Program-made: the position numbers and the translations under genes
Part shown: positions 1,750 to 64,000 of the stretch, piece after piece
Layout: each line of letters starts with the position of its first letter
How positions within the stretch are numbered: position 1 is the first letter of the stretch
The notes under the pieces: generated by a model
The model's database searches: none
What the model saw: the letters and a program-made list of their open reading frames with translations, nothing else
Told to the model about the DNA's origin: nothing
Assembly: GCA_963770895.1 (NCBI GenBank)
Contig: CAVYRF010000001.1
Coordinates: 1,760,001-1,824,000 of the forward strand
From: an uncultured Acidobacteriota bacterium
GTDB lineage: Bacteria; Acidobacteriota; Thermoanaerobaculia; Multivoradales; UBA5704
Direction: 5' to 3'
Length of the DNA: 64,000 bases

Positions 1750-1900
1750 CCCGCGCAAAGGACTGGAGAGGTTTGCGAGCGGCGGTCGCGGCGGCAGGTT
1801 GCGCGCTGCCGCCGCTCGCGGCCATGCCGCACGGCGTCGATACTGCGACCTTCCGGCCGCTCGCCGCCTCCGAGCCGCGGGTACCCCACCGCCGCCAAGC

Positions 1901-1998
1901 CAGCACCGTGTACACCTGGTGGCTCATCTTCGCCCCCGCAACAGGCAGCAGGCTGCATCGTGGTGATGCGGTGAGATTCCCAGGATGTTCAGTGCCAA
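1901..1998 (-). pseudogene. Internally deleted carbamoyltransferase remnant
   Basis: Reads LALNILGISPHHHDAACCLLR joined to SHQVYTVL, matching the first ~21 and last ~8 codons of the intact gene at 12373-14151 (MALNILGISAHYHDASCCLLR ... SHQVYTLL). Confidence 0.85.
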
Positions 1999-2113
1999 TC
2001 GCCTGCTTTCCGCGGTCCGCAAGGCCGCGGACAGCGCACCATCGCGCACCACCGCCGCGAAACCCATCCGCAGGGCACGATGTGCCGGCTCCCGAGGTGG
2101 AGTGACGGACGGC

Positions 2114-4354
2114 TCAACCGGCCACATCGATGGGCGCTTGCTGTCTCAGGGTGATCAACCCATGGCCGGCGAGTTTCTTGAGGTACCGCACCAGCCTCTC
2201 CACCTGCGGACTCTCGATGCTGCGCAGCAGATCGTCCAGCACGACCGGCTGGGGCGACTCCGTCAGCAACCGGTAGACCAGCGGGTCGAGGCAGATGCAC
2301 TTGGCACCCGCCATGCTCCAATATTTCCGCTGCCGTCCCGGCGCCAGGTTGGGCCGCGCCTCGGCCCACTCCTGAAACGAGCGGAGCGTCGGCTCGCGCG
2401 GCGTCTTGTCGAGCTGGCGCAGGTATGACGCCATGCTCTGGCGTTCTTTGATGATCTTGGCAAGATCGAATGGCGTATCGCGAACCACTCCCCGCGGTAC
2501 CACCACGCAGCCGTGCAAACCGGCATCGGCAATCTCGGTGCCATCGTCGCTGGTTTGTTGCAAATCGCGAAAAAAACGCCGTCCGTAATGATCGAAATAG
2601 ATCATGCTGTGCAGGCTGTCCACCCCTCCCGCCCAGGGCCTGCCCAGCAGGGCAGGAAAGACTCCCCCACGGTCTTCGAAGGAGGCATCCCGGTCCTCGG
2701 TGAGCAGCGTGCGCCCCTCGGCCTCGCCCGCTGCCTGTCCGTCCATCTCGTAGCCGGGAGCCCGTTCGATGTCGGCATCCTGCTTGTCGATCAACCGCAG
2801 TCCGAAACGCGAGGGGTCGCGGGCGACAATGGCCGACCCGGTGAGCTGGAAGGTCCCCATCCCGCCGGCGGACCAGAACCCGTCGTGCTCGCGGACGAAG
2901 CGCAGGGTCTCCTCTTTTTCGGCTGCGGTTTCCGACGGGAAGCCGCTGAATGTCATCAGCTGCACCGCCACTCCGGCGCCGGCAAAGTTCTTCATGGTCT
3001 CGCCCATGAAGGCAACCTTGGTGCCCTTGTCGATCAGATCGAGGACGCGCTGGTTGCCCGACTCCATGCCGAACGACACGCAGACGCAGCCGCTCTTCGC
3101 CAGCTTCTTGCAGCGCTCGGCGGAGAAGACCCTTTCCATGCGCAGCTCGGCGCCCCAGCGGATGTCCAGGCCGGCATCGACGATCGCATCGGTCAGGCGG
3201 TCCAGGTAGGCGGGCGACATCACGTCCACTGCGAAGTACACATAGCGGGTGTGGGTCGCGCCGACGATGTGAGCCAGATCCTCGATCACTTGATCCACGC
3301 CGCGCTCGCGCCACGGCGATGTCGGCTTCGAGGTGTTCAACCCATAGTCGCAGAAGGTGCAGCGATTCCAGTAGCAGCCGCGGGTCGGCGAGTAGTTGAT
3401 GCCGCGCTCCGGTGCCAGGTAGAGCTCCCATGGATAGCGGTAGAGGGGGCGGCCCAGCTGGGGTACGTTTTCATAGTGGATGTGCTGCGGCAGGAAGAGC
3501 TTCCCAGACCGTTTGTCGAAGGTGATCAGGTTCTGCACCCTGGCGCCAGGCACGACGCCGCCCGCATCGGCAATCTCGCACAGCGCAGTCTCGCCTTCGC
3601 CGACCACGATGCCGTCGCAGACGGCGAAAAAATCGGCCATGCGCTGCTTGTCTTTCATGTACTTGTAGAGCTGACTGATGGAGGTGCCGCCGAACAGCAC
3701 CTGCTTGGCAGGCCAGGCCTGCTTCACCCAGCGCGCCAGGTGCAAGGCGTGGAAAATCTGATGATCGTAGGCGACGCTGATGCCGACGCAATCGGCGGAG
3801 GAGAATTGCTCGTCCGCCGCCAGGCGCCCATCGAGGAAGCGGTCGAAGACCTGGCAGATCCTGCCGCCCAGGATCGGATCGAATAGATCGCGCAGATTGT
3901 AGGGTGAAAAGCGGCCGCGATTTGCCAGCCTGAAAGTGGTCAGCTCGCTCGGATAGCCGAGCGCTCCGAGCATCTCCATATAATCAGAGAGATCTGTTTG
4001 GTAGCGCTGGTAGTCTGGAAACGAAAGAAAGCAGCGGCGGTCACGCATCCCGGCGGCGGCGTGTCGAAGATCGTCATACCGCACCCGCCGCTGGCGCCAG
4101 AGTGCCAGATATTCTTCCTGCTCGGCAAAGCTGAGCGCAGCCTGGCGCTCGAAGGCGCTCAGCCGTCGCGCGGCCTCCTCGTAGAAGGCTGCGACGTTCT
4201 GCTCTTCCAGGGCCCAGTTGACCATCTCGATGTTGACGTCGCGGATCACCACGTCCGCAAACCCGGAATGAACCAGATGGCCGGCCAGGTAGGCGGTGGC
4301 GTGGTACGGCAGCGTCGGATCGTCGAGCGGAGGATGGGCCAACAGGATCTTCAT
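2114..4354 (-). CDS. B12-binding-domain radical SAM protein, paralog A (RiPP maturase, probable C-methyltransferase)
   Basis: CYWNRCTFC cluster motif; cobalamin-domain-like segment (VGISV...FGG...DGIVVGEGE); GMESG; C-terminal winged-helix/RRE-like segment; GAGGAG RBS. Confidence 0.9.
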   Translation of the reverse strand: MKILLAHPPLDDPTLPYHATAYLAGHLVHSGFADVVIRDVNIEMVNWALEEQNVAAFYEEAARRLSAFERQAALSFAEQEEYLALWRQRRVRYDDLRHAAAGMRDRRCFLSFPDYQRYQTDLSDYMEMLGALGYPSELTTFRLANRGRFSPYNLRDLFDPILGGRICQVFDRFLDGRLAADEQFSSADCVGISVAYDHQIFHALHLARWVKQAWPAKQVLFGGTSISQLYKYMKDKQRMADFFAVCDGIVVGEGETALCEIADAGGVVPGARVQNLITFDKRSGKLFLPQHIHYENVPQLGRPLYRYPWELYLAPERGINYSPTRGCYWNRCTFCDYGLNTSKPTSPWRERGVDQVIEDLAHIVGATHTRYVYFAVDVMSPAYLDRLTDAIVDAGLDIRWGAELRMERVFSAERCKKLAKSGCVCVSFGMESGNQRVLDLIDKGTKVAFMGETMKNFAGAGVAVQLMTFSGFPSETAAEKEETLRFVREHDGFWSAGGMGTFQLTGSAIVARDPSRFGLRLIDKQDADIERAPGYEMDGQAAGEAEGRTLLTEDRDASFEDRGGVFPALLGRPWAGGVDSLHSMIYFDHYGRRFFRDLQQTSDDGTEIADAGLHGCVVVPRGVVRDTPFDLAKIIKERQSMASYLRQLDKTPREPTLRSFQEWAEARPNLAPGRQRKYWSMAGAKCICLDPLVYRLLTESPQPVVLDDLLRSIESPQVERLVRYLKKLAGHGLITLRQQAPIDVAG

Positions 4355-4396
4355 CGCACATCTCCTCGCGCCTTGAAGCTCATCAAGGGGGCCGCG

Positions 4397-4975
4397 CTAC
4401 TCCTGCCTGGCAAGCCTGGCGGCCTGCGCAGCCTGGTGCTCGGCGACGAGCGACTTGAGCTTCGGCCACATCTCCTTGTAGGGGCAAAGGGAGCTGTTGA
4501 GGAACCGGCCGGCGGCCGCCGACCAGCCCCTGCCCAGCGGCAGCATGCAGGCGCCGAACTCGACCAGCCGGGCTACATTGGCGCGCACCGCCGGATGCGC
4601 CCACATCTCCGGCGCCATCGCCGGGCCGAAGGCGACCGGCCCGGTGAAGCTCAGATAACAGTGGGCGAGCAGCGTCTCCGCCGAACCTCCGGCGCAGCGC
4701 GCAAGGGTGGTGGCGCTGGCCGGTGCGACCAGGAAGAGATCGATGTCCTTGACCAGTTCGGGCGGGGAACGCATCGGACGCGGGTCGGACCACGGATCGA
4801 CATGCACGTCGACGCGCACCATGGCCTCGAGCGCCTGCGGATTGACAAAGCGAGCGGCGGCTGACGTCATGACCACCCGCAGCTCCTCGACCTCGGGCTC
4901 GGCCCGGAGGTTGATCAGGTAGGAGTGGATGTTAAGGACGCCGATCGAGCCGCTCACGCCGACCAGGATTCTCAT
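4397..4975 (-). CDS. HFCD-family flavoprotein (LanD/EpiD/PPC-decarboxylase-like), atypical
   Basis: ILVGVSGSI, VVMTSAAARF, LVAPASATT and PAMAPEMW motifs; lies directly after a precursor that ends in Cys. Confidence 0.88.
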   Translation of the reverse strand: MRILVGVSGSIGVLNIHSYLINLRAEPEVEELRVVMTSAAARFVNPQALEAMVRVDVHVDPWSDPRPMRSPPELVKDIDLFLVAPASATTLARCAGGSAETLLAHCYLSFTGPVAFGPAMAPEMWAHPAVRANVARLVEFGACMLPLGRGWSAAAGRFLNSSLCPYKEMWPKLKSLVAEHQAAQAARLARQE

Positions 4976-4997
4976 CGCGCAGGCTCCGCGCGCTGCC

Positions 4998-5044
4998 GCC
5001 GGTCTGCCGGAGAGGGCGTGCGACCGCCGTCTTGGCAGACCGGC
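4998..5044 (-). terminator. Stem-loop immediately downstream of precursor A
   Basis: Perfect 11-bp inverted repeat GCCGGTCTGCC (4998-5008) / GGCAGACCGGC (5034-5044); no U-tract. Confidence 0.6.
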
Positions 5045-5053
5045 CCTGACAGC

Positions 5054-5197
5054 TCAACAGCCGCCGTTGTTGTTGATATTGGTTTCTTCGTCTGAGGATG
5101 CCGCGCCGCCCGAGACATCTTCCAGCACGGTTTCGTCGATCTCACCGCTGCCAGCGTCCTCGAGTTCCTTTGCAACGTCTTCCGGTTTCTGGTCCAT
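5054..5197 (-). CDS. RiPP precursor A, 47 aa: MDQKPEDVAKELEDAGSGEIDETVLEDVSGG-AASSDEETNINNNGGC
   Basis: AAGGAGG RBS before ATG 5197; double-Gly leader EIDETVLEDVSGG; sits between the SPASM rSAM and HFCD genes. Confidence 0.92.
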   Translation of the reverse strand: MDQKPEDVAKELEDAGSGEIDETVLEDVSGGAASSDEETNINNNGGC

Positions 5198-5280
5198 GGA
5201 TTGCCTCCTTTGCCGGATCGCGACCGGCATTTGTCTGGTAAGGCACGCGGCACATGCCGCGCCCGTCGAAACCCTTACAT

Positions 5281-6756
5281 CTACTCGACGCCAGCCGCGG
5301 CGGTCTCGCCGTGCAACGGCACCGATGTCGATTCGCTTCGCCCCTCGACGGCGTCGATCAGTTCGAACTTGGCATTCCGGCGCAGCGGCGAGCACGGCGA
5401 ACTGCCGGTGTCCATGCGGATCTGCGGGCAGTAGACACCCTGGCAAACCGGCAGGATGGTGCACTTCCGGCACTTGGGGTCCTGCTCGAAGGCCGGTTCG
5501 GTCCACAACGCAAGCTTGTCCTGATCGAGCTCCATGCGACCGTCGGGGCGGAGGTAGCCCACCACGTTGCGGTCGTGCTTGTCGAGGTCGACCGTGCACT
5601 TCATCACCTTGCCGCTCGCCCCGATCAGGAAGTTGTAAGGCCGCGCCGCGTAGCAGACGTGCGAGCCCAGGCCCACTTCGGTGATCCCCGAGGCAAGGCT
5701 GAGGCCGCGCCGCTGGGCCTCCTTTTTCATCTCGCGTTCCATGCTCCAGGCGTCCTCGACGCCGCAGACCGCAAGGCTGGCGTCGTTCGGCCCACCCCAC
5801 TTGCCGACGGCGTAGAAGCGCATCTTGAAGCGCGGATCGCCGCCGAGCTCGCGCTCGATGATGTCGAGAAAGCCGCGGTAGCTCATCACGTTGTTGCGGT
5901 CGAAGTTGAAGCGCAACATGACCGTGAAGTCCTCGCTGCGGCGTGACAGCGCCTTGAGGTTGGCGAGGATGGTGCCGAAGGTTTCCTGGCCGTCGCGGGT
6001 GGGTCGAGTGCGGTTGTGGTCCTCCGGCACTCCGTCGATGGTGATCTGGAAAAACGCCACTTCCCAGGCCAGGAGCCGCTCGGCCACCTCCGGTGTGAGC
6101 AGGAAGGCGTTGGTGGTCATGTTGCTGGAGAAGCGGACCGAGTGTTCGCGGGCGATCGCCTGGAAGAACGGCGCGAGGTCCTCGATGGCCTCGAAGCCGT
6201 AGAGCGGCTCGCCGCCGAACCACGCCACCGACAGAGAGCTGAGCGAGCGGATGCGCGATTCGGTCAGCTTCTTGATGGCGGTGCGCACCGCCGGCTGCAT
6301 GGTGCCGCGGGCGAAGTCCTCGTAGCAGTAGGTGCAGCGGAAGTTGCAGTCTTCGGAGGCGAGGAGGATGAGTTGCAGGATGTCGGTGCGGTACTGGGCC
6401 TGGCCGAATTCGAGCTGGATGCGCCGGTATTCGTCAGTCCCCTCCTGGACCAGGAAGCCACGCTCGTAAAGGAGCTTGACGGCGCCCCGCCGTGCCGCCG
6501 TAAAACCCTTCTGCGTCAACAGGGTCTCGATCTTACGCCGGACTGCGACGGGGAAGACGCTCATCGTGCCGCGCAAGCTGTTCCACAGCACCAGACGGCC
6601 GTCGGTGGTGGTGGCGCGGGTGTTGTAGCGCGAGGGCACCCACCGCGTGGCGCCGGCCTCGGCCATCGCACTCCCTCCGGCGGGCACCGAGGGGATCTCC
6701 GTGTCGAGAGGAGATCGCACCAGAATGGGAAGCTTATCGCCGAGGCCGAGACTCAT
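5281..6756 (-). CDS. Radical SAM/SPASM domain peptide maturase
   Basis: CNFRCTYC, WFGGEP, SPASM cysteines (CYAA...KC...CRKCTILPVCQGVYCP...C); N-terminal RRE-like region; AAGGAGG RBS. Confidence 0.93.
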   Translation of the reverse strand: MSLGLGDKLPILVRSPLDTEIPSVPAGGSAMAEAGATRWVPSRYNTRATTTDGRLVLWNSLRGTMSVFPVAVRRKIETLLTQKGFTAARRGAVKLLYERGFLVQEGTDEYRRIQLEFGQAQYRTDILQLILLASEDCNFRCTYCYEDFARGTMQPAVRTAIKKLTESRIRSLSSLSVAWFGGEPLYGFEAIEDLAPFFQAIAREHSVRFSSNMTTNAFLLTPEVAERLLAWEVAFFQITIDGVPEDHNRTRPTRDGQETFGTILANLKALSRRSEDFTVMLRFNFDRNNVMSYRGFLDIIERELGGDPRFKMRFYAVGKWGGPNDASLAVCGVEDAWSMEREMKKEAQRRGLSLASGITEVGLGSHVCYAARPYNFLIGASGKVMKCTVDLDKHDRNVVGYLRPDGRMELDQDKLALWTEPAFEQDPKCRKCTILPVCQGVYCPQIRMDTGSSPCSPLRRNAKFELIDAVEGRSESTSVPLHGETAAAGVE

Positions 6757-6782
6757 GGCCGATCCTCCTTGGTAACACGCTT

Positions 6783-6811
6783 ACTGTAGATAAGCAATTT
6801 CATTTTGTCAA
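6783..6811 (-). promoter_or_regulatory. Sigma70-type promoter of the SPASM-precursor A-HFCD-rSAM operon
   Basis: Minus strand reads TTGACA-17 nt-TACAGT within an AT-rich patch, 26 nt upstream of the ATG. Confidence 0.75.
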
Positions 6812-6997
6812 GTTATGCGTAAGTCTATTATTCCTACATAGATGCAAGTTGGCGCGAAGGAACGCGCATGCTCTCCTCCCGCTTGGGGTCCGCGATGGCC
6901 GGCTTGCGCAGACGCGCTGGTGGTCGCGCCTTGCCTTCTGGCGTTAGGCCAGGGCAGCCCTCATAATCCGCCCCATGGAATGGAAAGGAGTCTCAGG

Positions 6998-7993
6998 ATG
7001 ACCTGTCGCCCGCCGCGGCCGCCGGCCTTTGCCATCGCCCTGCTGTGCGGAGCGCCGCTGTTCGCCCCTGGCGTCGCCGCCGCGCAGCAGGGCGCGCCGC
7101 CCGATCCCGCGGCGTATCAGCAGGAGATCGAAGCGTGGCGCGCCAACCGCGTCGCCAGCCTCAAGCAGGACCAGGGGTGGCTGGCCGACGCGGGCAGGTT
7201 CCGGCTGGACGAGGGAGAAAGCCGCGTCGGCAGCGATCCGGCGTCGCGCGTGCTGCTGCCGTCCGGCAGGGCGCCCGCCTTTGCCGGCACGCTGGCGCGG
7301 CACGGCGACGCGGTAACCTTCGTGCCCGCTCCCGGCCTGGCTCCGCCGCCCACCGCCGAGCGCCACCAGAACGGCGACCACGGCGCCCTGCTGGCCGCGC
7401 CGGCCGGCGGCGCCTTTGCGGGATCGCTGGTCCTGGCGGACGACAGCACCGAAGGCGGCCCGACCGTCGTCCACCTGGGCGCGATTTCGTTCTATGTCAT
7501 CCGGCGCTTCGACAAGATGATCGTCCGCGTCAAGGACGCCCAGGCCCCGGCGATCGCCGCCTTCCAGGGCATCGACAACTTCCCGCTGCGCGCCGACTGG
7601 CGGGTCCAGGCCCGCTTCGAGCCCTACAAGCCCCCCAAGCCGCTCACCATCACCAACGTCGTCGGTGAGATCGACGACGGCCTGGTGCCCGGCGCGGTCG
7701 TCTTCGACCACGACGGCCACTCCTACCGCCTGGACGCTTTCGACGAGGCCGACGGCCGCCTCTTCATCGTCTTCGGCGACCAGACCAACGCCTTCGAAAC
7801 CTACGGCGCCGGCCGCTTCCTGGACGCCGAAAAGCCCGCCAAGGACGGCCGCCTGATTCTCGATTTCAACAAAGCGTACAACCCCCCGTGCGCCATCTCC
7901 ACCTACGCCGTCTGCCCTCTGCCGCCGCGCCAGAACCGCCTCCCCGTCCAGGTCCAGGCCGGCGAAAAGACCTTCCGCGGGGCCCACGGCTGA
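6998..7993 (+). CDS. DUF1684-type secreted protein
   Basis: AAGGAG RBS before ATG 6998; signal-like N-terminus; FGDQTNAFETYGAGRFL and LDFNKAYNPPCA...CPLPP motifs. Confidence 0.88.
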   Translation: MTCRPPRPPAFAIALLCGAPLFAPGVAAAQQGAPPDPAAYQQEIEAWRANRVASLKQDQGWLADAGRFRLDEGESRVGSDPASRVLLPSGRAPAFAGTLARHGDAVTFVPAPGLAPPPTAERHQNGDHGALLAAPAGGAFAGSLVLADDSTEGGPTVVHLGAISFYVIRRFDKMIVRVKDAQAPAIAAFQGIDNFPLRADWRVQARFEPYKPPKPLTITNVVGEIDDGLVPGAVVFDHDGHSYRLDAFDEADGRLFIVFGDQTNAFETYGAGRFLDAEKPAKDGRLILDFNKAYNPPCAISTYAVCPLPPRQNRLPVQVQAGEKTFRGAHG

Positions 7994-8122
7994 GACGCCT
8001 CCCTTCTCAATGGCAGCCGCGCGACCTTGACTTGCCGCAGGGTTGCGCACAGCATATTGCGAAGATGCGTTAGTGCAAGCCACTGGACCTGACTCGGCCC
8101 GGTGGCGGGGGAGCGTGGCACC

Positions 8123-9364
8123 ATGATTCCCTACTTTCTGAACCTCGGCCAGAGCATCGAACGGGCCTGGCTGGCGCGGGGCTACGACGAAGAGGTGTTC
8201 CCTACGCTGGCGGTGGATCTCCTGGCGGAGAATCCACCGCAGCAGCATGTCGGGACGGCGGATGTCGTCGATTGGGTCTTCGGTACTTCCCACCCCTTTT
8301 TGCAGCCCGCTGGACGCGCCTTTTTCGGCGAGCCGCCGGTGCTGGTCTACCAGGGGCCGCGGTTCTATATCGAAGTTCTGTTCTGGATGGCGGCGACCAC
8401 CTCCATCCACGAGCATGGCTTCAGCGGCGCTTTCGCGGTCCTGGCCGGATCGAGCGTGCACAGCCACTGGCGTTTCGCGCGCGAGCGGACGATCAATTCC
8501 CGCCTGCTGTGCGGCCGGCTGGAGCGCGTGTCGACCGAGATCCTGCGGCCCGGCGCCATCCGCCAGATCGACTCCGGCAGCCGGCTGATCCACCAGCTTT
8601 TCCACCTGGAGCTGCCGTCGGTCACGATCGTCGTGCGTACCTATTCCGATCGCAAACATCAGCCGCAGTATCAGTACCTGCCGCCGGGACTGGCGATCGA
8701 CCCCGAGGACCACGACCCGCTGCGGGCGCGGCGCCTGCTGCTGCTCGACAACATGGCCCGCGGCCGGCTTCCGGGCCTGCCGGAGTACGCCGGCAGGCTC
8801 ATCGCCGTCGCCGATCCGGAGACGCTGTGGCAGATGTTCTCGACCTTGACCCGCCGCAAGGTGGACCGCGGCCTGCTCGACGGCCTGTTCCGGCTTGCCC
8901 GCGACCGCCACGGCGACGTGGTGGACCTGTTCCGCCGGGTGTGCGAAGACGAGCGGCGCACCCGCGTGGTGACCGCGCTGCGGGAAAAAGTCGTCGATCC
9001 GCAGGCGCGGTTCCTGCTGGCGCTGCTGATGCTGATGCCCGATCGCGACGCGATCGTCGAAACCGTGCAGCAACAGTTTCCCAACCTGCAGCCGGTGCCG
9101 GCGATCGAAACCTGGGTCGCATCCATGGCCGGCAAGGAAACCATCGGCTTTCACCTCACCGACCTCAACCGCCTCATCTTCCGCGGCCTGGTGGAAGGTG
9201 TCGACGCGGATGGCCTCTTGCAGCGGTTGCGGACCCAGCTCCAGGACGGCGCCGCCACCGATCCCGAGCACGCGCTCGACCACGCCAAGCGCATGGCGCG
9301 GCTGGACCTGTTCTATCCGTTGTTTTCACGTTCGCCGCTGCGCGAAGCGGCGCGGATGGCCTGA
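8123..9364 (+). CDS. Cupin (cysteine-dioxygenase-like) domain protein, candidate peptide oxygenase
   Basis: TSIHEHGFSGAFAVLAG ... LIHQLFH gives an HxH...H metal triad; convergent with precursor B. Confidence 0.75.
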   Translation: MIPYFLNLGQSIERAWLARGYDEEVFPTLAVDLLAENPPQQHVGTADVVDWVFGTSHPFLQPAGRAFFGEPPVLVYQGPRFYIEVLFWMAATTSIHEHGFSGAFAVLAGSSVHSHWRFARERTINSRLLCGRLERVSTEILRPGAIRQIDSGSRLIHQLFHLELPSVTIVVRTYSDRKHQPQYQYLPPGLAIDPEDHDPLRARRLLLLDNMARGRLPGLPEYAGRLIAVADPETLWQMFSTLTRRKVDRGLLDGLFRLARDRHGDVVDLFRRVCEDERRTRVVTALREKVVDPQARFLLALLMLMPDRDAIVETVQQQFPNLQPVPAIETWVASMAGKETIGFHLTDLNRLIFRGLVEGVDADGLLQRLRTQLQDGAATDPEHALDHAKRMARLDLFYPLFSRSPLREAARMA

Positions 9365-9470: not shown

Positions 9471-9584
9471 TCAGTTGGGATTGTTGATGATGTTGTTGTT
9501 GTCGTCCGGCTTCGCATCGCCGCCCGACACGTCTTCCAGAACCTCGTCATCCAGCTCTGCACTCTTGGACTTCTCGTCGGCCAT
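9471..9584 (-). CDS. RiPP precursor B, 37 aa: MADEKSKSAELDDEVLEDVSGG-DAKPDDNNNIINNPN
   Basis: Translated by hand (below the ORF-track cutoff); AAAGGAG RBS; leader end VLEDVSGG identical to precursor A; directly downstream of rSAM paralog B. Confidence 0.92.
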   Translation of the reverse strand: MADEKSKSAELDDEVLEDVSGGDAKPDDNNNIINNPN

Positions 9585-9676: not shown

Positions 9677-12001
9677 TCATCTGGGCGCCGCCACCATCGG
9701 CGCGGGATCGGAACCCGGTTCCGAGTGTCGCGGCGTCCACCCCTGCCGGGGCCCGCGGGATCTCCCGGCAGCCGTCGGCATTGCCGCCTTCTGCGACGCC
9801 GTCAATACGATCAGGCCTTGCGCGGCGAGCCGCCGGAAGTAGCGCAGGAACCTGGCGGCCTCCGGCTGGTCGACACGGCCGAGCAGCTCCCGCAGCGTGA
9901 CCGTCTGCGTCTCGGTCGCCGCCAGCAGCTGGTAGACGAACGGATCGATCCGCACACACTTGGCGCCGGCCATCGCCCAGTAGCGGCGTTGCGGGCCGGC
10001 TGCCAGCGCGGTGCGGCCGGCAGCCCATTCGCGATAGGCCTGCTGCGTCGGTTCGCGCGGGACCTTGGCCAGCGCCGCCAGATAGGACGCCATCTGTTTG
10101 CGTTCGCGCAGGATCGTGGCCAGGTCGTACGGTGAGTCCCGCAGCACCCCCGGCACCCCGACGGCGCACGCCAGCAGCTGCTCGTCCGACATCGCATCGT
10201 CGGTGTCGAGGTTGTCGCGGAAAAAGCGCCGGCCGTAGAAATCGTAATAAATCATGCTGTGCAGGCTGTCGGTGCCGCCGGCCCAAGGTCTTCCCAGCAT
10301 CAGGGGAAAGATGTTGCCGCGGGCGTCGAACGAAGCGTCGCGGTCTTCGGTGAGCATCGCCTTGCTCTCTTCGCCCCGCGCGTCGTCTTCCAGCTCGTAG
10401 GCCGGCGCCCGCAGCACGTCGACGTCCTGCTTTTCGATCAGGCGCACGCCGAAGCGGCCGGGGTCCTTGGCGACGATCGCCGTGCCGGTCAGCAGGAAGG
10501 TGCCGATGCCGCCGGTGGACCAGTAGTCGTCGTGGTCGCGGACGAAGCGATGGGTCTCCGCCTTTTCTGCCGCGGTTTCCGATGGGAAGTCGGAGAACGC
10601 CATGAGCTGGACCGCGACGCCGGCCTCCGCGAAGTTCTTCATCGTTTCGCCCATGAAGGCGACCTTGGTGCCTTTGTCGATCAGGTCCAGGATGCGCTGG
10701 CTGCCGGACTCCATGCCGAACGAGACGCAGACGCAGCCGCTGGCCGCCAGCTTGGCGCAGCGGTCTTGCGTGAAAACCTTTTCCAAGCGCATTTCCGCCG
10801 CCCAGCGGATGTCCAGATCGGCGGCGGCGATGGCGTCGGACAGCCTGTCCAGGTAGGCGGGCGCCATGACGTCGACGGCGAAATAGACATACCGGGCACC
10901 GGTTTCGCCAATGGCGCTGCGCAGGTCGTCGACCGCCTGGTCGACCCGGCGCTCGCGCCATGGGGAGGTCGGCTTGGAGGTGTTGAGGCCGTAGTCGCAA
11001 AACGTGCAGCGATTCCAATAGCAGCCGCGCGTGGGCGAATAGTTGATGCCGCGCGCCGGCGCCAGGTACAGGTCCCACGGGTAGCGGAAAAGCGGGCGGC
11101 CCAGGGCCGGCACGTTCTCGTAATGGATGCAGTCGGGCAGGTACAGCTTGTCCGCCGTGCGGTCGTACGAGATGAGGTTGTGGACCTTGGCGCCGGGCTT
11201 GACCTGCCCGGCGTCGGCGATCTGGCACAGCGCCGTCTCGCCTTCGCCGACGACGATGCCATCGCACATTTCGAAAAAGCGCCGCATCTGCTGCTTGTCG
11301 CGGATGTACTTGTAAAACTGGCTGATCGAGGTGCCGCCCAGCAGGATCTGCTTGTCCGGCCAGCGCCGCTTCGCCCACCGTGCCATGTGCAGGGCGTGAA
11401 ACATCTGGTGGTCGTAGACGATGCTGAGCCCCAGGCAGTCCGCGGCGGCGAGCTGGGCGTCGTCCGCCAGCCGCTCGTCGAGGAAGCGATCGAAGACCTG
11501 GCAGATCGTTGCGGTCAGGCCGGGTTCGAAAAGATCGCGGAAGTTGTAGGGCGAAAAGCGGCCGCGGCTGACCTGCCTGAAGTTGGTCACGTCGCCGGGG
11601 TAGCTGAGGCTGCCGAGCATGCTTTCGTAACGCAGCAAGCTCATCCGAAAGGTCTTGTACTCATCGAAAGCAAGGAAGGCGTCGCGATCGCGCAATCCGG
11701 CGAGCGATCGTTGCAGCTGTTCGTAGGAGACGCGATGCTGGCGCCAGAGGCCGAGGTACTCTTCCTGCTCCAGGAAGGACAGCGACCCTTTGCGTTCCAA
11801 GGCCTTCAACCGCCGGTCGGCCTCTTCGTAGAACGACGAGAAGACCGCTTCCTCGAACGTCCAATTCACCATCTCGATGTTGACGTCGCGGATGGCGACG
11901 TCGTCGAAGCCGCAATGCACCAGGTGGCCGGCGAGGTAGGCGGTCGAATGGTACGGCAACGTGGGATCGTCGAGCGGCGGGTGCGCGAGCACGATCTTCA
12001 T
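9677..12001 (-). CDS. B12-binding-domain radical SAM protein, paralog B
   Basis: Colinear paralog of 2114-4354 (MKIVLAHPPLDDPTLPYH, CYWNRCTFCDYGLNTSKPTSPWRER); GGAGG RBS supports start 12001 rather than 12133. Confidence 0.9.
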   Translation of the reverse strand: MKIVLAHPPLDDPTLPYHSTAYLAGHLVHCGFDDVAIRDVNIEMVNWTFEEAVFSSFYEEADRRLKALERKGSLSFLEQEEYLGLWRQHRVSYEQLQRSLAGLRDRDAFLAFDEYKTFRMSLLRYESMLGSLSYPGDVTNFRQVSRGRFSPYNFRDLFEPGLTATICQVFDRFLDERLADDAQLAAADCLGLSIVYDHQMFHALHMARWAKRRWPDKQILLGGTSISQFYKYIRDKQQMRRFFEMCDGIVVGEGETALCQIADAGQVKPGAKVHNLISYDRTADKLYLPDCIHYENVPALGRPLFRYPWDLYLAPARGINYSPTRGCYWNRCTFCDYGLNTSKPTSPWRERRVDQAVDDLRSAIGETGARYVYFAVDVMAPAYLDRLSDAIAAADLDIRWAAEMRLEKVFTQDRCAKLAASGCVCVSFGMESGSQRILDLIDKGTKVAFMGETMKNFAEAGVAVQLMAFSDFPSETAAEKAETHRFVRDHDDYWSTGGIGTFLLTGTAIVAKDPGRFGVRLIEKQDVDVLRAPAYELEDDARGEESKAMLTEDRDASFDARGNIFPLMLGRPWAGGTDSLHSMIYYDFYGRRFFRDNLDTDDAMSDEQLLACAVGVPGVLRDSPYDLATILRERKQMASYLAALAKVPREPTQQAYREWAAGRTALAAGPQRRYWAMAGAKCVRIDPFVYQLLAATETQTVTLRELLGRVDQPEAARFLRYFRRLAAQGLIVLTASQKAAMPTAAGRSRGPRQGWTPRHSEPGSDPAPMVAAPR

Positions 12002-12372
12002 TTGCGACCTCCTTGGCGTTGCGTTCCGCCTGCCGTCGGAGCGAAGGATCTGCCGGGGCGTCTCCTTCGTCTCATGGTGCTTCGTATATGCCAACATTAC
12101 CCTATAACAGTGAGTAGTTGATACGCAATACAACGTACAAATGAAATCATGTTTAATACCTGACAGGGGTGGTCAGTTTATGGGACAAGCGCCCCAATTA
12201 CAGGCCGCGCCAGACTCTTTTCGCCGGGTTTTTGTGCTGCTCAATCTGTGCTAAGTGCCTTGTAGAAATCGATGCTTACGTAGTACTCTCTGTTTTGCGC
12301 GGTTTTGTGAGGCCGCGGGGCGCTGTCCTGGGCCTGGCAGGCCTCTCCTCGTGGAGCGCGGGACAAGGGCGA

Positions 12373-14151
12373 ATGGCACTGAACATCCTGGGGATCTCAG
12401 CGCACTACCACGATGCATCCTGTTGCCTGTTGCGCGACGGGCAGCTCATCTGCGCGGCGGAGGAAGAGCGCTTCTCCCGCGTCAAGCACGACAGCCGCCT
12501 GCCCTGGCGCTCTTTTCGCTTCTGCCTCGAACAGGGGGGCATCACCCTGCCCGAGGTCGACTGCGTCGCCTACTATGAAAATCCTGAAAAGAAGCTGTCC
12601 CGGCAGATCTGGATGGCCCTGCATCCGGATGCCTCCGACTCCATCCGCCGCAGCGTTCTGAGCCGGCTGCCGGATCGCGTCGACCGGGTCGAACGGCAGA
12701 TCCGCCACCAGCTCGGCTACACCGGCCGGTTGGAGCTTTTCGATCATCACCAGTCTCACGCCGCCAGCAGCTTTTTTTACTCCGGGTTCGAAGAGGCCGC
12801 GGTGTTGACCGTGGACGGCGTGGGCGAATGGGCGACGACCGCCTTCGGCGCCGCCGCCGGCGCCGCCATCGATCTGTTCGAAGAGGTCCGCTTCCCCAAC
12901 TCGCTGGGCATGCTGTACAGCGCCATGACCGCGTATCTGGGCTTTGACGTCAACGACGGCGAATACAAAGTCATGGGGCTCGCCCCCTACGGAGAGCCGC
13001 GCTACGTCGACCAGGTGCGCGCCCTGGTGACGCGGCAAGGGGACGGCCAGTACCGGCTCAACCTCCAGTATTTCGATTTCCTGCGGCGCAACCGGATGTA
13101 TTCGGACCAACTGGTGGATCTATTCGGGGCACCGCCGCGGTTGCCCGAGGCGGAGCTGCTGGCATTTCACCAGGACGTCGCGCGCAGCGTCCAGTGGGTG
13201 CTCGAAGAGATCCTGCTCGAAAAAGTGCACTACCTCCACGACCGGGTTCCCAGCCGCAACCTCTGCATGGCGGGCGGCGTCGCGCTCAACTGCGTGGCCA
13301 ACAGCCGCATCCTCCGCGACGGGCCCTTCGCCCAGCTGTTCGTACAGCCCGCCGCGAGCGATGCCGGCGGCTGCCTGGGCGCCGCCGCCCTGGCGCACGT
13401 GCGCCTGACCGGCGAGCGGCCGGCCCAGGGCCGCCTGGCCCACATGTACTGGGGCCCCGCCACGCCGGTCGAAGACGTCGCCGGCATGCTCGCCGGAACC
13501 GCGCTGCCGGCCCTCGACTTCCGCTGCCGGCCCGACGACCTGCTGCAGGCGACCGTCGAGCGCCTGGCGGCCGGCAAGGTCGTGGGCTGGTTCCAGGGCC
13601 GCATGGAGTTCGGACCGCGCGCGCTGGGGGCCAGGTCGATCCTGGCGGACCCGCGCGACGAAGGCATGCGCGACCGGATCAACGCCCTGGTCAAGATGCG
13701 CGAAAGCTTCCGTCCCTTCGCCCCGGCGGTTCTCGAAAGCCGGGCGCGGGATCACTTCGCCATCGACCATCCCTCTCCCTTCATGCTGGAAACCTGCCCG
13801 GTCAGCTCGCCGATCCATCTGCCGGCGGTCACCCACGTCGACCGCTCGGCCCGCCTGCAGACCGTCGACCCGGCGTCGAGCCCGCGCTTCGCCGCCCTCC
13901 TGGAGCGCTTTGCCGATCGCACCGGCTGCCCGATCCTGCTCAACACCTCCTTCAACGTCCGCGGCGAACCCATCGTCCGCACGCCGGAGGAGGCGCTGCT
14001 CTGTTTTGCACGCTCGGGCATCGATACCCTGGTCCTCGAAGACTTCGTCATCGACCGCCAATCGGTGCCGCCGGCCTGGAGCCAGCTGCTGCCGAAGCAG
14101 GAGCGACCCGGCGGGCCGAGGGTGAGCCACCAGGTGTACACGCTGCTGTAG
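12373..14151 (+). CDS. Carbamoyltransferase (NodU/CmcH/TobZ family)
   Basis: ILGISAHYHD, EEERFSRVKH, HHQSHAAS, DGVGE, EYKVMGLAPYG, GGVALNC, EFGPRALG, LNTSFN; start set at ATG 12373. Confidence 0.95.
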   Translation: MALNILGISAHYHDASCCLLRDGQLICAAEEERFSRVKHDSRLPWRSFRFCLEQGGITLPEVDCVAYYENPEKKLSRQIWMALHPDASDSIRRSVLSRLPDRVDRVERQIRHQLGYTGRLELFDHHQSHAASSFFYSGFEEAAVLTVDGVGEWATTAFGAAAGAAIDLFEEVRFPNSLGMLYSAMTAYLGFDVNDGEYKVMGLAPYGEPRYVDQVRALVTRQGDGQYRLNLQYFDFLRRNRMYSDQLVDLFGAPPRLPEAELLAFHQDVARSVQWVLEEILLEKVHYLHDRVPSRNLCMAGGVALNCVANSRILRDGPFAQLFVQPAASDAGGCLGAAALAHVRLTGERPAQGRLAHMYWGPATPVEDVAGMLAGTALPALDFRCRPDDLLQATVERLAAGKVVGWFQGRMEFGPRALGARSILADPRDEGMRDRINALVKMRESFRPFAPAVLESRARDHFAIDHPSPFMLETCPVSSPIHLPAVTHVDRSARLQTVDPASSPRFAALLERFADRTGCPILLNTSFNVRGEPIVRTPEEALLCFARSGIDTLVLEDFVIDRQSVPPAWSQLLPKQERPGGPRVSHQVYTLL

Positions 14152-14181: not shown

Positions 14182-16212
14182 GTGCCGGAACAGCCTGACC
14201 ACGACCAGCTTTTGAAAGCGGTCGCCGACGCGACGGCGGGCCTGCTCAGCCAGGGCGACGGCGCCGCCGCCGTTCTGATCCTGGAGCGCCTGGGCCTGCT
14301 GAAGGCGGCGGCCAGGAAGACCGCCGCCGCCTCGCCCGGCACGATCGGCGTGTGGGAGGCCGGGCCGCAGGGGCACCAGCGTTCGGCCGCGCGGCGCGAC
14401 GACTGGCATTTCTGGGCCGATGTCCAGTCCATTCCGCCCAAGGGGGAGCGGCCGCGGGTGGCGCTGGTGGGCGAATCGGTGGCCCGCGGTTTTCTCTACG
14501 ACCCGGCGTTCAATCCGGCCCAGGCCCTGGAGGCTTGCCTGACGGCGGCCCTCGGACAGCCGGTCGAAGTGCTCGACCTCGCCAAGATCGACCTGCTGCC
14601 CCAGGAGCTCATGAGCCTCACCGAGGCGGCGACCACGCTGGCGCCCGACGTGCTGGTGGTCTTCGCTGGCAATAACTGGTTCATGCACGACCAGCGCGAC
14701 CTGCCGATCGAAGCGGCCGCCCTGCGCGAGCGGGGAGCTGCCGGGCTCAAGGAGCTGCGCGAGCAGCGCCTGGCCGCCTTTGCCGCCGGCACTTTCCGGC
14801 AGCTGCTCACCGAGCTATCCCAGCGCCAGCCGCTGGTGGTGGTGGTTCCAGAGATCAACCTCGCCGACTGGCGCCTGGATGCGGAAGCGGATGCGCCCTG
14901 GCTGCCGGACGGACGCAACCGCCTCTGGCTGGAATGCCGCGCGGCGGCCCGCGCCGCGCTGGCCGCCGGTCGCCTGGACCAAGCGGCGGCCCTGGCGCGC
15001 CAGATGATCGACCTGGACGGCGGCACCGCGGCTTCCGGCTGGACCCTGCTGGCCGACTGCGCGCGCGCCACGGCAGAGACGGAAACCGCCCGCGCCTGCC
15101 TTGAAAAGGCGCGCGACGCTCACACCTGGGACTACACCCACCAGACGCCGCGGATTCTCTCTCTCGCCCAGGGCGCCTTGCGGGACTGCGCGCTGCCCGG
15201 CCGCATCGCAATCGTCGACCTGCCGCGCTGTTTCGCCGCCTGGCGCCCCGGCGAGCTCCCCGGCCGGCGCCTGTTCCTGGACTACTGCCACATGAGCGCG
15301 GAGGGGATCCGCGTCGCCATGGCGGCGACGGCATTACAGGTTGCGACGCTGCTGGACGCCAGCCGGCCGCTTCCGGCGCTGGCGAGCGTGGTCGAAGCTG
15401 CCCCCGCCCCCGACGCCCGCATCGAGGCGGCGGCCCAGTTTGCCGGGGCGCTCCATTCCGCGCATTGGGGCCAGGTGAGCCCGTTCGTCTCGGCTCTCTG
15501 TCACCAGGCCGCCCAGACGTCCCCCGAAATCGCCCAGGCGATGCGGCTCTACCTGGAATTGCAGGTCCGGCAGGCGCCGGTGTGGGCCTGCGCGGCGGCC
15601 GGGCAGCTGGCCGACGTGGCGCCGCCTTTCCTGCGCCGCTACATCCTGCATCCCCACAAAAGGCTTTTCGACCCGGTGCTGCTGCCGGCCATCGCCGGCG
15701 CGCTCGAAGAAACCGGCCTGCCCACGCTGGCCTTTCTCACCGAGCTGCGCCAGCAGGAGAGGAGCCTTTCCAACCGTCCGCGCAACCTCCTGGACCCCTA
15801 CCATCGCGCGTCCTGGGCGGACCTCGACTGGCTGGACTGGCCCAACCATTTCTGCCGCGCCTACAGCCCCAGGTCGCGCTACCCCTGGGTTTCCCGCACG
15901 CCGCGCGACCTGGCGTTCACCCTGACCTGCCGGCGCCGGCACGCGGCCGGCCCCAGCGAGTGCCACCTGTCGATCAACGGCACCTGCGCCGGACGCCTGT
16001 CCCTCACCGCCGGCTGGAGCACCTATCGCTTCAGCGCCCCCGCGGCGCTGGTGCAGGCCGGAGTGAACTGGCTGGAGATCGACTGGCCTGCCGATCCTGC
16101 GGATGGCGAACAGGCGATCGGCAGCATCGCTCATCAGCTGGAGCTTCGCCGCTACACCCCGCTGCTTCCGGTCTTTGCGGAGATCTATTCGCTGACCGCC
16201 GTCGAGACCTGA
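14182..16212 (+). CDS. SGNH/GDSL-hydrolase-like protein with helical insert
   Basis: VALVGESVARG (block I-like), FAGNN, FLDYCH (DxxH); GGAGGAG RBS; follows the carbamoyltransferase on the same strand. Confidence 0.65.
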   Translation: MPEQPDHDQLLKAVADATAGLLSQGDGAAAVLILERLGLLKAAARKTAAASPGTIGVWEAGPQGHQRSAARRDDWHFWADVQSIPPKGERPRVALVGESVARGFLYDPAFNPAQALEACLTAALGQPVEVLDLAKIDLLPQELMSLTEAATTLAPDVLVVFAGNNWFMHDQRDLPIEAAALRERGAAGLKELREQRLAAFAAGTFRQLLTELSQRQPLVVVVPEINLADWRLDAEADAPWLPDGRNRLWLECRAAARAALAAGRLDQAAALARQMIDLDGGTAASGWTLLADCARATAETETARACLEKARDAHTWDYTHQTPRILSLAQGALRDCALPGRIAIVDLPRCFAAWRPGELPGRRLFLDYCHMSAEGIRVAMAATALQVATLLDASRPLPALASVVEAAPAPDARIEAAAQFAGALHSAHWGQVSPFVSALCHQAAQTSPEIAQAMRLYLELQVRQAPVWACAAAGQLADVAPPFLRRYILHPHKRLFDPVLLPAIAGALEETGLPTLAFLTELRQQERSLSNRPRNLLDPYHRASWADLDWLDWPNHFCRAYSPRSRYPWVSRTPRDLAFTLTCRRRHAAGPSECHLSINGTCAGRLSLTAGWSTYRFSAPAALVQAGVNWLEIDWPADPADGEQAIGSIAHQLELRRYTPLLPVFAEIYSLTAVET

Positions 16213-16224
16213 CCCCTCCGCGGA

Positions 16225-18642: not shown

Positions 18643-18715
18643 GGTCACCTCGTCGTCCTGGTTCACCAGCAGATCGACAGCTAAGCAGTGTAGCAGGCTC
18701 GCGTCGTAGCGGGCG

Positions 18716-19903
18716 TCATGCCGGCGGCACGCCGGCCGCCTGCTGCGGCCGCCAGCCGCAGGTGCGATCGTACGCGGCCGCGAGACGCACCGGAGCGCTG
18801 GCGTCCGCCAGGTCTTCCAGGCGCAGCGTGGCGAGCGCGGCGATGACCAGGGCGCGGTCGCGCGGCGTCGCCAGCGGCGGCCGGCGGTCGTCGTCGAAGC
18901 GTCCCAGGTTGGCTGCCGCGGCATGGACCAGCGCCCGCAGCACGGCAAAGGCGCCGTCCGACAGCGGCGGCGTGCCGCGATACACCTGCAGGCGGCCGGC
19001 CGGCCGGTAGCGCGGGAAGTCCTCGAGGCCCAGGAAGCGCAGCAGCCAGTCGGGACGGAAGCGGCCCAGGGCCGAGCCGATGCCGACAAAGTCGGCGATC
19101 AGCTCGTCGAGCAGGTTGTTGCGCATGACGCCGAACAGCCGGCGGGTGAAGTAGTGCGCTCCTTCGTGCTCGCGGCGGATGGCGAGCGACAGCTGCCGCC
19201 ATCGGCCGCCGTCCACGCCCAGCTGCTCGGCGGGCACGGCGCTGTACGGGCCGTCGCTGAGCAGGATGAGACGGTCCTGGTAGAGGTCCTTTTGCGGCCG
19301 CAGCCGCTCCATCTCCGCGGCCCAGGAGGCGGTCGCCCGCAGCGCGGCGGGCGTCGCCTCCCATGCCCGGCGCAGCTCGTGGAGCCGCGCCCAGTTGACG
19401 TAGCCGGAGATCATCTGGGCGCCCATCGCCTCGGGCACCGGCCACGGCTCGTTGCGCCGGCTGAGCGCCTGGACCAGCAGCACGAAGTCCTGGCGGCAGC
19501 CGGCGACGAGCAGGGGGATCCTGCCGGCGGGGCTCTGGTGCAGGACGATCTGCAACCGCTCCGGGGCGCTGAGCGTCAGGCCCTGGCCGCCCGGCGGCGG
19601 GTCGGGCGCCACGCCCTGCCGCGTCGCCGCCAGGTAGGGAGCGGTCTGGCTGATGCCCGCGGCGACGGGGAAGCGCAGCTGCGGCAGCTTGGCGCGCAGC
19701 ACCGCGAAGCTGCCGCGGTCGGCGGCCTCCAGGACACAGCTCTCCCAGAAGGCGATGAACGGTTCGTCGGCCAGGGGCAGCCGCGGCGCCGCGAAGATCG
19801 CCTCGCTGGCGAACAGGTTTTCGTTGTAGGCCAGGAGCTCCGCCACCTCGCCGGCGGCGGCGCCGAAGGTCGTCAGGGTGCCAGCTTGCCGAGCTTCAGC
19901 CAT
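18716..19903 (-). CDS. Uncharacterised HExxH-motif protein
   Basis: 395-aa ORF; RREHEGAHYF followed by DELIAD (third-ligand-like Glu). Confidence 0.75.
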   Translation of the reverse strand: MAEARQAGTLTTFGAAAGEVAELLAYNENLFASEAIFAAPRLPLADEPFIAFWESCVLEAADRGSFAVLRAKLPQLRFPVAAGISQTAPYLAATRQGVAPDPPPGGQGLTLSAPERLQIVLHQSPAGRIPLLVAGCRQDFVLLVQALSRRNEPWPVPEAMGAQMISGYVNWARLHELRRAWEATPAALRATASWAAEMERLRPQKDLYQDRLILLSDGPYSAVPAEQLGVDGGRWRQLSLAIRREHEGAHYFTRRLFGVMRNNLLDELIADFVGIGSALGRFRPDWLLRFLGLEDFPRYRPAGRLQVYRGTPPLSDGAFAVLRALVHAAAANLGRFDDDRRPPLATPRDRALVIAALATLRLEDLADASAPVRLAAAYDRTCGWRPQQAAGVPPA

Positions 19904-19932
19904 CGCTATAGCATATGGTGGAGAGAGCGAGC

Positions 19933-47358: not shown

Positions 47359-47675
47359 CGGTAGCTCCAGGCCGAAGTGTACCCTCCCGGCACCCTGCGT
47401 CGCAATCCTGAGGCTTTTCCTGCCACCTGACAATCACCGCATGGTCGGTGCATTGCAAGCAAGGTCGCATCGATTGCCAAAAATGACGGTTGTCGCCAAA
47501 GAAGCGCCGCGTTTCGATCTATTCGTATTGGTACATTTACACTTGCATCCGGTAGCGCGAAGGTTCCAACTCCGTGATCGACAAGGCACCCCCGGCAGAC
47601 AGCAGCTCCGCACCGCCGGCCCATCCGGCAGCCGGCGCCGCCGGTTCCAGGCGGGTTGCCGGGGAGGACCGGGAG

Positions 47676-64000
<16,325 letters not shown>

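Follow-up and report, generated by a model that had tools for sequence, protein, structure and literature searches.

A probable AviCamCys-type peptide gene cluster with a non-canonical flavoprotein in an uncultured acidobacterium

Can a ribosomal peptide outside the staphylococci be closed into an aminovinyl-thioether ring without a dehydratase? To our knowledge, dehydratase-independent rings of this kind have been described so far from one staphylococcal cluster. The question is raised by a 64-kb stretch of DNA from an uncultured Acidobacteriota bacterium (contig CAVYRF010000001.1, positions 1,760,001 to 1,824,000; hereafter the window), in which a short peptide, precursor A, ends in Asn-Gly-Gly-Cys and its gene lies between those for a radical SAM/SPASM enzyme and an HFCD-family flavoprotein. 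Judged from sequence and gene neighbourhoods, the window probably holds a cluster for a peptide made on the ribosome and modified after translation (RiPP), of the type that carries S-[2-aminovinyl]-3-carbamoylcysteine (AviCamCys).

In the account of the staphylococcal system given in PMC10989515, AviCamCys of Staphylococcus ureilyticus YC419 is made by SycC, a radical SAM/SPASM enzyme with a CxxxCxxC motif, and SycD, a LanD-like enzyme. SycD acts first, producing a C-terminal enethiol on the 22-residue SycA, and SycC second, on the pair Asn19-Cys22, with an aldehyde shunt product arising without SycC. The syc gene set as described there consists of the precursor, the radical SAM enzyme, the LanD-like flavoprotein and an MFS transporter. 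The same account presents NxxcB, a streptococcal radical SAM enzyme that joins the Cys sulfur to Asn C-beta in an NxxC motif. The primary report on AviCamCys is that of Cheng, Huang, Duan and Liu (Angew Chem 2023, e202308733), as cited in PMC11162475. An earlier note on this DNA had proposed that a radical-made thioether combined with decarboxylation could give a new macrocycle. The mechanism fits the comparative evidence below, but the claim of novelty falls, since AviCamCys and the two-enzyme logic of SycC and SycD were published in 2023, as set out in PMC10989515. In the literature searched, which left subscription journals largely outside, no acidobacterial or double-glycine-leader version of AviCamCys was found.

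One operon encodes the precursor and both candidate ring-forming enzymes

The features of the operon are as follows, in the order of transcription.

6783-6811, minus strand: sigma-70-like promoter, TTGACA-17-TACAGT, a consensus match only, upstream of the radical SAM/SPASM gene
5281-6756, minus strand: radical SAM/SPASM peptide maturase, 491 residues (Pfam Radical_SAM, E 5e-14)
5054-5197, minus strand: precursor A, 47 residues, with a double-glycine leader to G31 and a 16-residue core
4992-5053, minus strand: stable RNA hairpin, directly 3' of the precursor A stop codon and ahead of the flavoprotein gene
4397-4975, minus strand: HFCD-family flavoprotein, 192 residues (Pfam Flavoprotein, PF02441, E 8e-21)
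2114-4354, minus strand: B12-binding radical SAM protein a, 746 residues (Pfam B12-binding and Radical_SAM), the last gene of the operon
1936-2016, minus strand: carbamoyltransferase gene remnant, 27 residues (tblastn, 70% identity over 27 residues)

The earlier note was right about the core of this arrangement: the NGGC ending, the SPASM enzyme and the HFCD protein all lie where it had placed them, on the minus strand. The genes are closely spaced, with 83 nucleotides between the radical SAM/SPASM gene and that of precursor A and 42 between the flavoprotein and B12-radical SAM a genes. The promoter match is the single such site found in 1800-7000 (shuffle mean 0.5), and it falls in the only AT-richer gap. 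Folding of 4960-5070 gave -61.4 kcal/mol for the hairpin (z -3.1; 1 of 200 shuffles as stable), which may serve in attenuation or transcript stabilisation.

The gene for precursor A has an AAGGAGG ribosome-binding site 5 nucleotides ahead of its ATG. The leader ends in V-S-G-G and the core in N44-G-G-C47 followed by the stop, C47 being the sole Cys; besides five Asn, the core offers no side chain of obvious reactivity. In a near relative (metagenome contig L082) the C-terminal octapeptide N-I-N-N-N-G-G-C is unchanged, whereas 7 of the first 8 residues of the core are different. N-N-N-G-G-C with its stop is also kept, with synonymous changes only, in a contig from a soil RNA library (run X12; loose end behind 5045). 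Given these two instances of conservation and the enrichment of Asn at position -3 reported in the next section, the precursor A ending and the NxxC pattern are more than chance.

NxxC units recur in the substrates of the radical SAM/SPASM family

The radical SAM/SPASM enzyme carries the cluster motif C137-x3-C141-x2-C144 and seven further, SPASM-like cysteines (C368-x13-G-x4-C387, C429-x2-C432-x5-C438-x4-C443 and C455), its last block reading Cx2Cx5Cx4C where Cx2Cx5Cx3C is usual. The closest solved structure is that of the thioether synthase CteB (5wgg, E 3e-14). TIGR04463 gives the best NCBIfam match (190 bits, cut-off 525), and the CefB, Clo7bot, geopeptide, FlmE-OhkG and PapB models gave 142/600, 151/600, 145/400, 127/500 and 96/340 bits, respectively, so that every NCBIfam cut-off is missed. 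Five other members of the family were tested and none scored above these cut-offs, and no NxxcB-named model stands among the 25 best of the enzyme's 60 NCBIfam matches. Since all scores lie far under the curated cut-offs, the group is an unmodelled sister family of the CteB/PapB-type maturases; it has more than 1600 homologues, mostly unnamed.

From around homologues, 80 loci were fetched with flanks of 6 kb. Where the homologue is at least 48% identical to the enzyme of the window (40 loci), a peptide with a double-glycine leader lies downstream of the radical SAM gene in 24. Precursors were recognised by a regular expression, which found none in the other 16 loci; the precursor of one of these (L005) was found by eye, and most of the rest show a longer conserved gene. 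The resulting set comprises 29 cores from 25 loci, the window included, with 75 Cys. Of these Cys, 51 have Asn at -3 (shuffle mean 0.14; so high a value arose in 0 of 2000 shuffles), so that Asn and Cys co-vary at this spacing. Offsets -1 and -5 are weakly enriched for Asn as well because of a recurrent N-x-N-C-x-C unit, in which two NxxC motifs overlap. The cores beside related enzymes are built of Asn and Cys with little else conserved: L017 has four N-P-x-C repeats, L003 a tandem N-T-N-C-G-C, and N-x-N-C-x-C units occur in L001, L003 and L004. As a plain pattern across the family, NxxC is a recognisable, putative substrate unit of these enzymes.

This pattern bears on the proposal that the enzyme acts elsewhere in the Asn-rich core of precursor A, by epimerisation or by a C-C or other cross-link, with NGGC unrelated to its chemistry. 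The five Asn of the core, the scarcity of other reactive side chains, the chemical diversity of SPASM enzymes and the sub-cut-off scores of all NCBIfam matches would suit such a reaction. We nonetheless hold it to be very improbable: Cys and Asn at -3 vary together across the family, the related cores offer little besides these two residues, and the nearest named families and the solved structure belong to thioether formers or maturases of Cys-rich peptides.

Several branches of the family differ in their neighbourhoods. Flavoprotein-free relatives (L001, L003, L004, L011, L013, L019, L038 and others) have precursors with one or several N-x-N-C-x-C units, which suggests that one enzyme could form interlocked double thioether rings; these relatives probably make saturated, NxxcB-type links. 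A distant branch (49-52% identity; L022, L025-L027, L029-L036 and L048), found in Pseudomonadota, Myxococcus and some Acidobacteriota, has no double-glycine-leader peptide after the radical SAM gene and shows a longer conserved gene with a leader-like N-terminus (L-S-D-D-E-L ... F-G-L-R-A-Y). Actinomycete relatives with 36-40% identity (L040, L043, L044, L047, L049, L050, L052, L053 and L055) have short acidic peptides about 200-300 nucleotides upstream. Two Anaerobacillus relatives (L039, 2629-2730; L041, 2814-2882) have upstream peptides with a final Cys and an Asn at -6 from it (N-x-P-x-F-x-C).

The flavoprotein accompanies a C-terminal cysteine

A homologue of the flavoprotein was found with two queries, even at E 0.1, within the fetched flanks of 9 of the 80 loci, 7 of them acidobacterial (59-68% identity) and 2 from Paenibacillus (33-34%). 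Its presence co-varies with a C-terminal Cys. Among loci with precursors recognised by the regular expression, the core ends in Cys in 7 of 7 with the flavoprotein and in 0 of 18 without it (Fisher p 2e-6), and L005 brings the first count to 8 of 8, the window included. The C-terminal endings of these eight are varied, with six different C-x-C endings among the acidobacterial loci besides the G-G-C of the window, and the residue at -3 of the terminal Cys is Asn in L007-L010 and in the window, five of the eight. Gene order varies too: the flavoprotein gene precedes the radical SAM gene in six loci, lies 1.5 kb after it in L006 and follows the precursor gene in the window.

A quick maximum-likelihood tree places all eight flavoprotein-linked radical SAM enzymes, interleaved with five flavoprotein-free ones, in one well-supported clade of 13 rows, on which the presence of the flavoprotein needs at least 2-3 changes. 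The precursors of the five flavoprotein-free rows (L011, L001, L003, L004 and L038) have the C-x-C unit followed by more residues. The tie between the flavoprotein and a C-terminal Cys is therefore strong; what the protein does to that residue we infer.

The Paenibacillus loci (L056 and L057) have, in order, a 26-residue peptide ending in N-I-F-C, a radical SAM enzyme, a flavoprotein that is canonical in contrast to the clade of the window, and an MFS transporter, which is the syc gene set. With only 33% identity between the radical SAM enzymes (E 9e-79, L056) and 34% between the flavoproteins, this locus, as judged by gene order and identity, is an independent and distant parallel to the three-part set of the window. 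No Staphylococcus was seen among the 30 listed of 59 plasmid records matched by tblastn with the Paenibacillus radical SAM enzyme, nor a Staphylococcus-named protein among its 120 best homologues.

A housekeeping CoaBC was considered for the flavoprotein and rejected: the protein of the cluster scores 90.6-91.8 bits against the TIGR00521 cut-off of 219.7, and its 192 residues include no CoaB part. A true CoaBC scoring above the cut-off, at 405 bits, is located elsewhere in the same genome (G000:C1:792656-793834), so the flavoprotein of the cluster is not the housekeeping enzyme.

Proposed maturation of precursor A

We infer the chemistry, the order of its steps and the decarboxylation by the flavoprotein from the gene content and comparisons above. 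Precursor A would be made with its double-glycine leader, and the flavoprotein would oxidatively decarboxylate the C-terminal Cys47 to an enethiol. The radical SAM/SPASM enzyme would then abstract a hydrogen from Asn44 C-beta and join that carbon to the Cys47 sulfur, closing a four-residue, C-terminal ring of S-[2-aminovinyl]-3-carbamoylcysteine without a dehydratase. The C39-peptidase ABC transporter would cleave the leader after G31 and export the peptide. Further tailoring would come from both B12-radical SAM proteins, from the carbamoyltransferase and from the thiol-dioxygenase-like protein. Precursor B, which lacks Cys, would be a second substrate, acted on by the B12 enzymes alone.

We give an AviCamCys-like ring as the product of precursor A a probability of roughly 0.55. 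This reading draws on the syc precedent, on the adjacency of the three parts in one operon, on the co-variation of Asn at -3 with Cys and of the flavoprotein with a C-terminal Cys, and on the Paenibacillus parallel, and also on the distinction of the flavoprotein from the housekeeping enzyme and the conservation of N-N-N-G-G-C and its stop in a relative.

A non-canonical flavoprotein and the case against decarboxylation

Profile comparison placed the flavoprotein close to 7cfu, 6jls, MrsD and EpiD (E 5e-29 to 1e-14, with 5e-29 for 7cfu and 6e-23 for MrsD), with CoaBC 6tgv also matched. It keeps the flavin mononucleotide (FMN)-binding N-terminus and a clamp-like G-x-S-A-A-x-G segment, with no Cys at the clamp position of phosphopantothenoylcysteine (PPC) decarboxylases. 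A profile of its clade gave 428 matches at E 1e-10, the best 120 of which split at a score gap between 166 and 124 bits into 88 clade members and 32 others. Three cysteines mark the clade, namely Cys94 (88 of 88), Cys106 (84 of 88) and Cys164 (85 of 88). The motif PASANT reads PASATT in the window, with Thr in 79 of 88 clade members, but Asn is found in only 12 of the 32 others, which makes this difference weakly diagnostic.

Several observations weigh against conversion of precursor A to AviCamCys. Where MrsD has S-H-V-E-I, 7cfu A-H-V-A-L, 6jls P-H-V-R-I and CoaBC Q-H-V-R-I, the window has S70-P71-P72-E73-L74. The His column of this alignment is thus Pro71, and it is Pro in 86 of the 88 clade members and His in all 32 others; in EpiD and MrsD this His (His67 and His75, respectively) is the base on which the active site depends. 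The Asn/Asp of PxMNxxMW is Ala121 in the window and never Asn or Asp in the clade (Ser 37, Ala 31, Glu 10, Pro 9, His 1), as against Asp 19, Asn 12 and His 1 in the others. The terminal Cys has Gln at -3 in L005 and L006 and Met in L002. The actinomycete peptides end in I-D-F-G-C (7) or I-D-F-N-C (2), with Asp at -3 and no flavoprotein within 6 kb, so a C-terminal Cys alone does not imply decarboxylation. The loci are akin and thus less independent than the Fisher and shuffle figures imply, and the flanks reach only 6 kb. Finally, the window is likened to syc by described gene set and motif, not by the SycC and SycD sequences.

With neither the conserved His nor the motif Asn/Asp kept, decarboxylase activity is not readable from the sequence. 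The earlier note had taken the protein for an ordinary LanD-type Cys decarboxylase; its place in the HFCD family (PF02441) stands, but with Pro in place of the His and Ala in place of the Asn/Asp, decarboxylation is less certain than that note assumed.

The same losses favour a different product, a saturated thioether between Cys47 sulfur and Asn44 C-beta as made by NxxcB, with the carboxylate kept and the flavoprotein acting as an FMN electron donor to the radical SAM clusters, a C-terminus binding partner or another oxidoreductase. The occurrence of close radical SAM relatives (55-64% identity) in loci without any flavoprotein fits this, as do the actinomycete relatives, whose C-terminal DxxC peptides have no flavoprotein. 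A general redox helper would, however, not be expected to follow a C-terminal Cys with such regularity (8 of 8 loci with the flavoprotein, 0 of 18 without it); the clamp region and FMN-binding N-terminus are conserved, the peptide decarboxylase MrsD is among the best profile matches, and both the Paenibacillus and the Staphylococcus systems pair the two enzyme types on a C-terminal NxxC. On this balance we regard the saturated product with an intact carboxylate as unlikely.

The clade-specific cysteines point to another route, in which decarboxylation would be redox-neutral, as in PPC decarboxylases. Those enzymes use a conserved clamp Cys for enethiol reduction. Here a clade Cys, for example Cys164 beside the clamp, would reprotonate the enethiol, and the radical SAM enzyme would cross-link the C-terminal cysteamine into a saturated S-(2-aminoethyl)-3-carbamoylcysteine ring. 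The conservation of Cys94, Cys106 and Cys164 in this flavoprotein clade only is in keeping with such a function, but Cys164 aligns with the Ala of R-M-A-E-P in most of the 32 others and not with the PPC-decarboxylase Cys, and the base for the first half-reaction is missing here just as it is in the oxidative route. We consider this outcome decidedly improbable.

A broader proposition starts from the flavoprotein clade as an HFCD subfamily of its own, with at least 88 sequences. Its members would handle the C-terminal Cys by a non-LanD mechanism or to another product, for example through redox-neutral decarboxylation that yields cysteamine or by a route mediated by Cys, and the partner radical SAM family would build overlapping N-x-N-C-x-C double rings. 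We regard this proposition as rather doubtful. If it were true, the C-terminal knot of the acidobacterial peptides would not be AviCamCys, and it would be altered further by B12-dependent, carbamoyl-transfer and thiol-dioxygenase-like steps.

A second precursor, tailoring genes and export genes

A second sub-locus, 3-9 kb away from the operon, encodes a 420-residue protein, precursor B, B12-radical SAM protein b and a full carbamoyltransferase; export genes lie further along the window.

8102-9364, plus strand: 420-residue protein with a thiol-dioxygenase-like cupin domain in its structural model
9471-9584, minus strand: precursor B, 37 residues, with an AAAGGAG site before its ATG
9677-12001, minus strand: B12-binding radical SAM protein b (the longest open reading frame runs to 12133; the alignment with paralogue a begins at the ATG at 12001)
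12169-14151, plus strand: carbamoyltransferase of NodU/CmcH type (Pfam Carbam_trans_N and _C; likely start ATG 12373)
19878-22775, plus strand: open reading frame whose C-terminal part encodes a HlyD-type membrane fusion protein
22768-24981, plus strand: ABC transporter with an N-terminal C39 peptidase domain (Peptidase_C39, E 1e-33; ABC_membrane; ABC_tran)
24995-27967, plus strand: second ABC transporter

Precursor B shares the leader end V-L-E-D-V-S-G-G with precursor A (56% identity over 32 residues) and has an Asn-rich core without Cys. As the earlier note had said, it adjoins neither a SPASM enzyme nor a flavoprotein; its neighbour is a B12-radical SAM gene. The two B12-radical SAM proteins, each of about 740 residues, are 67% identical. 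Their NCBIfam matches, all under the cut-off, are best to PhpK and the RiPP C-methyltransferase subfamily, and our guess is that the pair could C-methylate both cores. A homologue was found in 1 of 401 genomes of the class sample, at a locus (L092 of genome G365) with a different double-glycine-leader peptide 2.8 kb upstream and with neither SPASM enzyme nor flavoprotein.

The carbamoyltransferase has homologues of 82-84% identity beside members of the radical SAM/SPASM family in L007-L009, L013, L028 and L051. It is thus more conserved than the SPASM enzymes themselves, which in those loci are only 54-59% identical to that of the window. The remnant at 1936-2016, after B12-radical SAM a, matches residues 63-89 of the open reading frame at 12169-14151 (tblastn), which suggests a past duplication of the B12-radical SAM/carbamoyltransferase block.

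The 420-residue protein has no Pfam or NCBIfam match, and its homologues (57-67% identity) lie beside the radical SAM/SPASM enzyme or a precursor in L012, L015, L017, L019, L028 and L038. Its AlphaFold2 model (pLDDT 75.6) contains a cupin domain, and the best Foldseek matches of the model are cysteine (CDO), cysteamine (ADO) and mercaptosuccinate dioxygenases, at E 5e-5 and weaker. His103, His105, His164 and His168 are invariant in six sequences. Going by the model, the protein may be a peptide-thiol or thioether oxygenase.

The HlyD-type, C39-ABC and ABC export genes fit the double-glycine leaders of both precursors, and the C39-peptidase transporter would be expected to cut these leaders and to export precursors A and B. 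Between the tailoring and export genes lie a DUF7005 protein (18716-19903, minus strand, E 5e-138), a MacB/FtsX-type permease (16225-19089, minus strand) and a weak GDSL-like match (14182-16212, plus strand); some long open reading frames in 14182-19903 overlap, and the gene calls there are provisional. Just past the export genes is a large regulator-like protein (28707-32132, plus strand) with zinc ribbon, adenylate/guanylate cyclase, AAA ATPase and TPR parts. A giant non-ribosomal peptide synthetase open reading frame (47574-63998, plus strand, open at the end), with condensation, adenylation and carrier domains in its first 1500 residues, belongs to a separate biosynthetic cluster.

Occurrence in genomes and soil libraries

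The flavoprotein clade was found in 1 of 401 genomes in a sample of the phylum and in 3 of 401 in a sample of the class, the two additional ones being the genomes of L007 and L008. Import of the cluster from another phylum was considered and dropped, as the source genome shares its family with these two. The stretch is present in soil metagenomes, and a metagenome scan with the flavoprotein as a single-sequence query gave no more than two contigs, L081 and L082, both short and near-identical. Contigs from three of four soil RNA-library runs (X12, X15 and X18, from three studies) are 90-95% identical to the window over parts of the flavoprotein, precursor and radical SAM/SPASM genes (4397-6860), one of them running from the flavoprotein gene into the last part of the gene for the precursor; no matching contig was found in run X16. 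These matches are relatives from other strains, and because the libraries may contain DNA they do not prove transcription.

Comparison with known systems

Our results suggest that the three-part AviCamCys logic extends beyond Staphylococcus to soil Acidobacteriota. They also bring to light a large radical SAM family that lies outside curated models and has substrates built of NxxC units. The system bears on whether an HFCD protein without the conserved His can decarboxylate a peptide, and on whether one radical SAM scaffold accepts both thiol and enethiol sulfur. Rules for genome mining follow: the flavoprotein is to be expected where a core ends in Cys, the cross-link where Asn stands at -3, and the recurrent accessory genes serve as further markers.

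The LanD enzymes (EpiD, MrsD and CypD; 6jls and 7cfu) and the flavoprotein of the window share the PF02441 fold and a clamp-like segment. By contrast, the flavoprotein has Pro at the His column, which sets it apart from other HFCD proteins, together with Ala at the PxMN Asn/Asp position, PASATT and three new clade-conserved Cys. The radical SAM enzyme resembles CteB/PapB, TIGR04463, CefB, Clo7bot and geopeptide maturases in its radical SAM plus SPASM architecture, and its N-terminal extension aligns to models of ranthipeptide- and sactipeptide-type maturases from residue 44; unlike CteB/PapB-type maturases, it scores far under the curated cut-offs (TIGR04463, for instance, gives 190 bits where 525 are required). 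The description of FlmE/OhkG is silent on the reaction of its radical SAM enzyme.

NxxcB and the window have in common the NxxC substrate motif, which is strongly enriched in the cores of the window's radical SAM family. They differ, in a comparison by description and not by sequence, in hosts, in leader type and in the repeated or overlapping N-x-N-C-x-C units of the family, and only in the window is the Cys C-terminal and paired with a flavoprotein.

The closest likeness is to syc. Both systems have a precursor with a C-terminal Asn-x-x-Cys, an adjacent CxxxCxxC plus SPASM radical SAM enzyme and an adjacent flavoprotein of the HFCD family (in the window one with Pro at the His column), no dehydratase, and a ring that runs, or in the window would run, from i to i+3. 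The window differs from syc in its 47-residue double-glycine-leader precursor in place of a 22-residue peptide, in C39-ABC export in place of an MFS transporter, in its acidobacterial host, in additional B12-radical SAM, carbamoyltransferase and thiol-dioxygenase-like genes and in a second, Cys-free precursor. It is probably a distant acidobacterial variant of the AviCamCys system, set apart by its unusual flavoprotein and additional tailoring genes.

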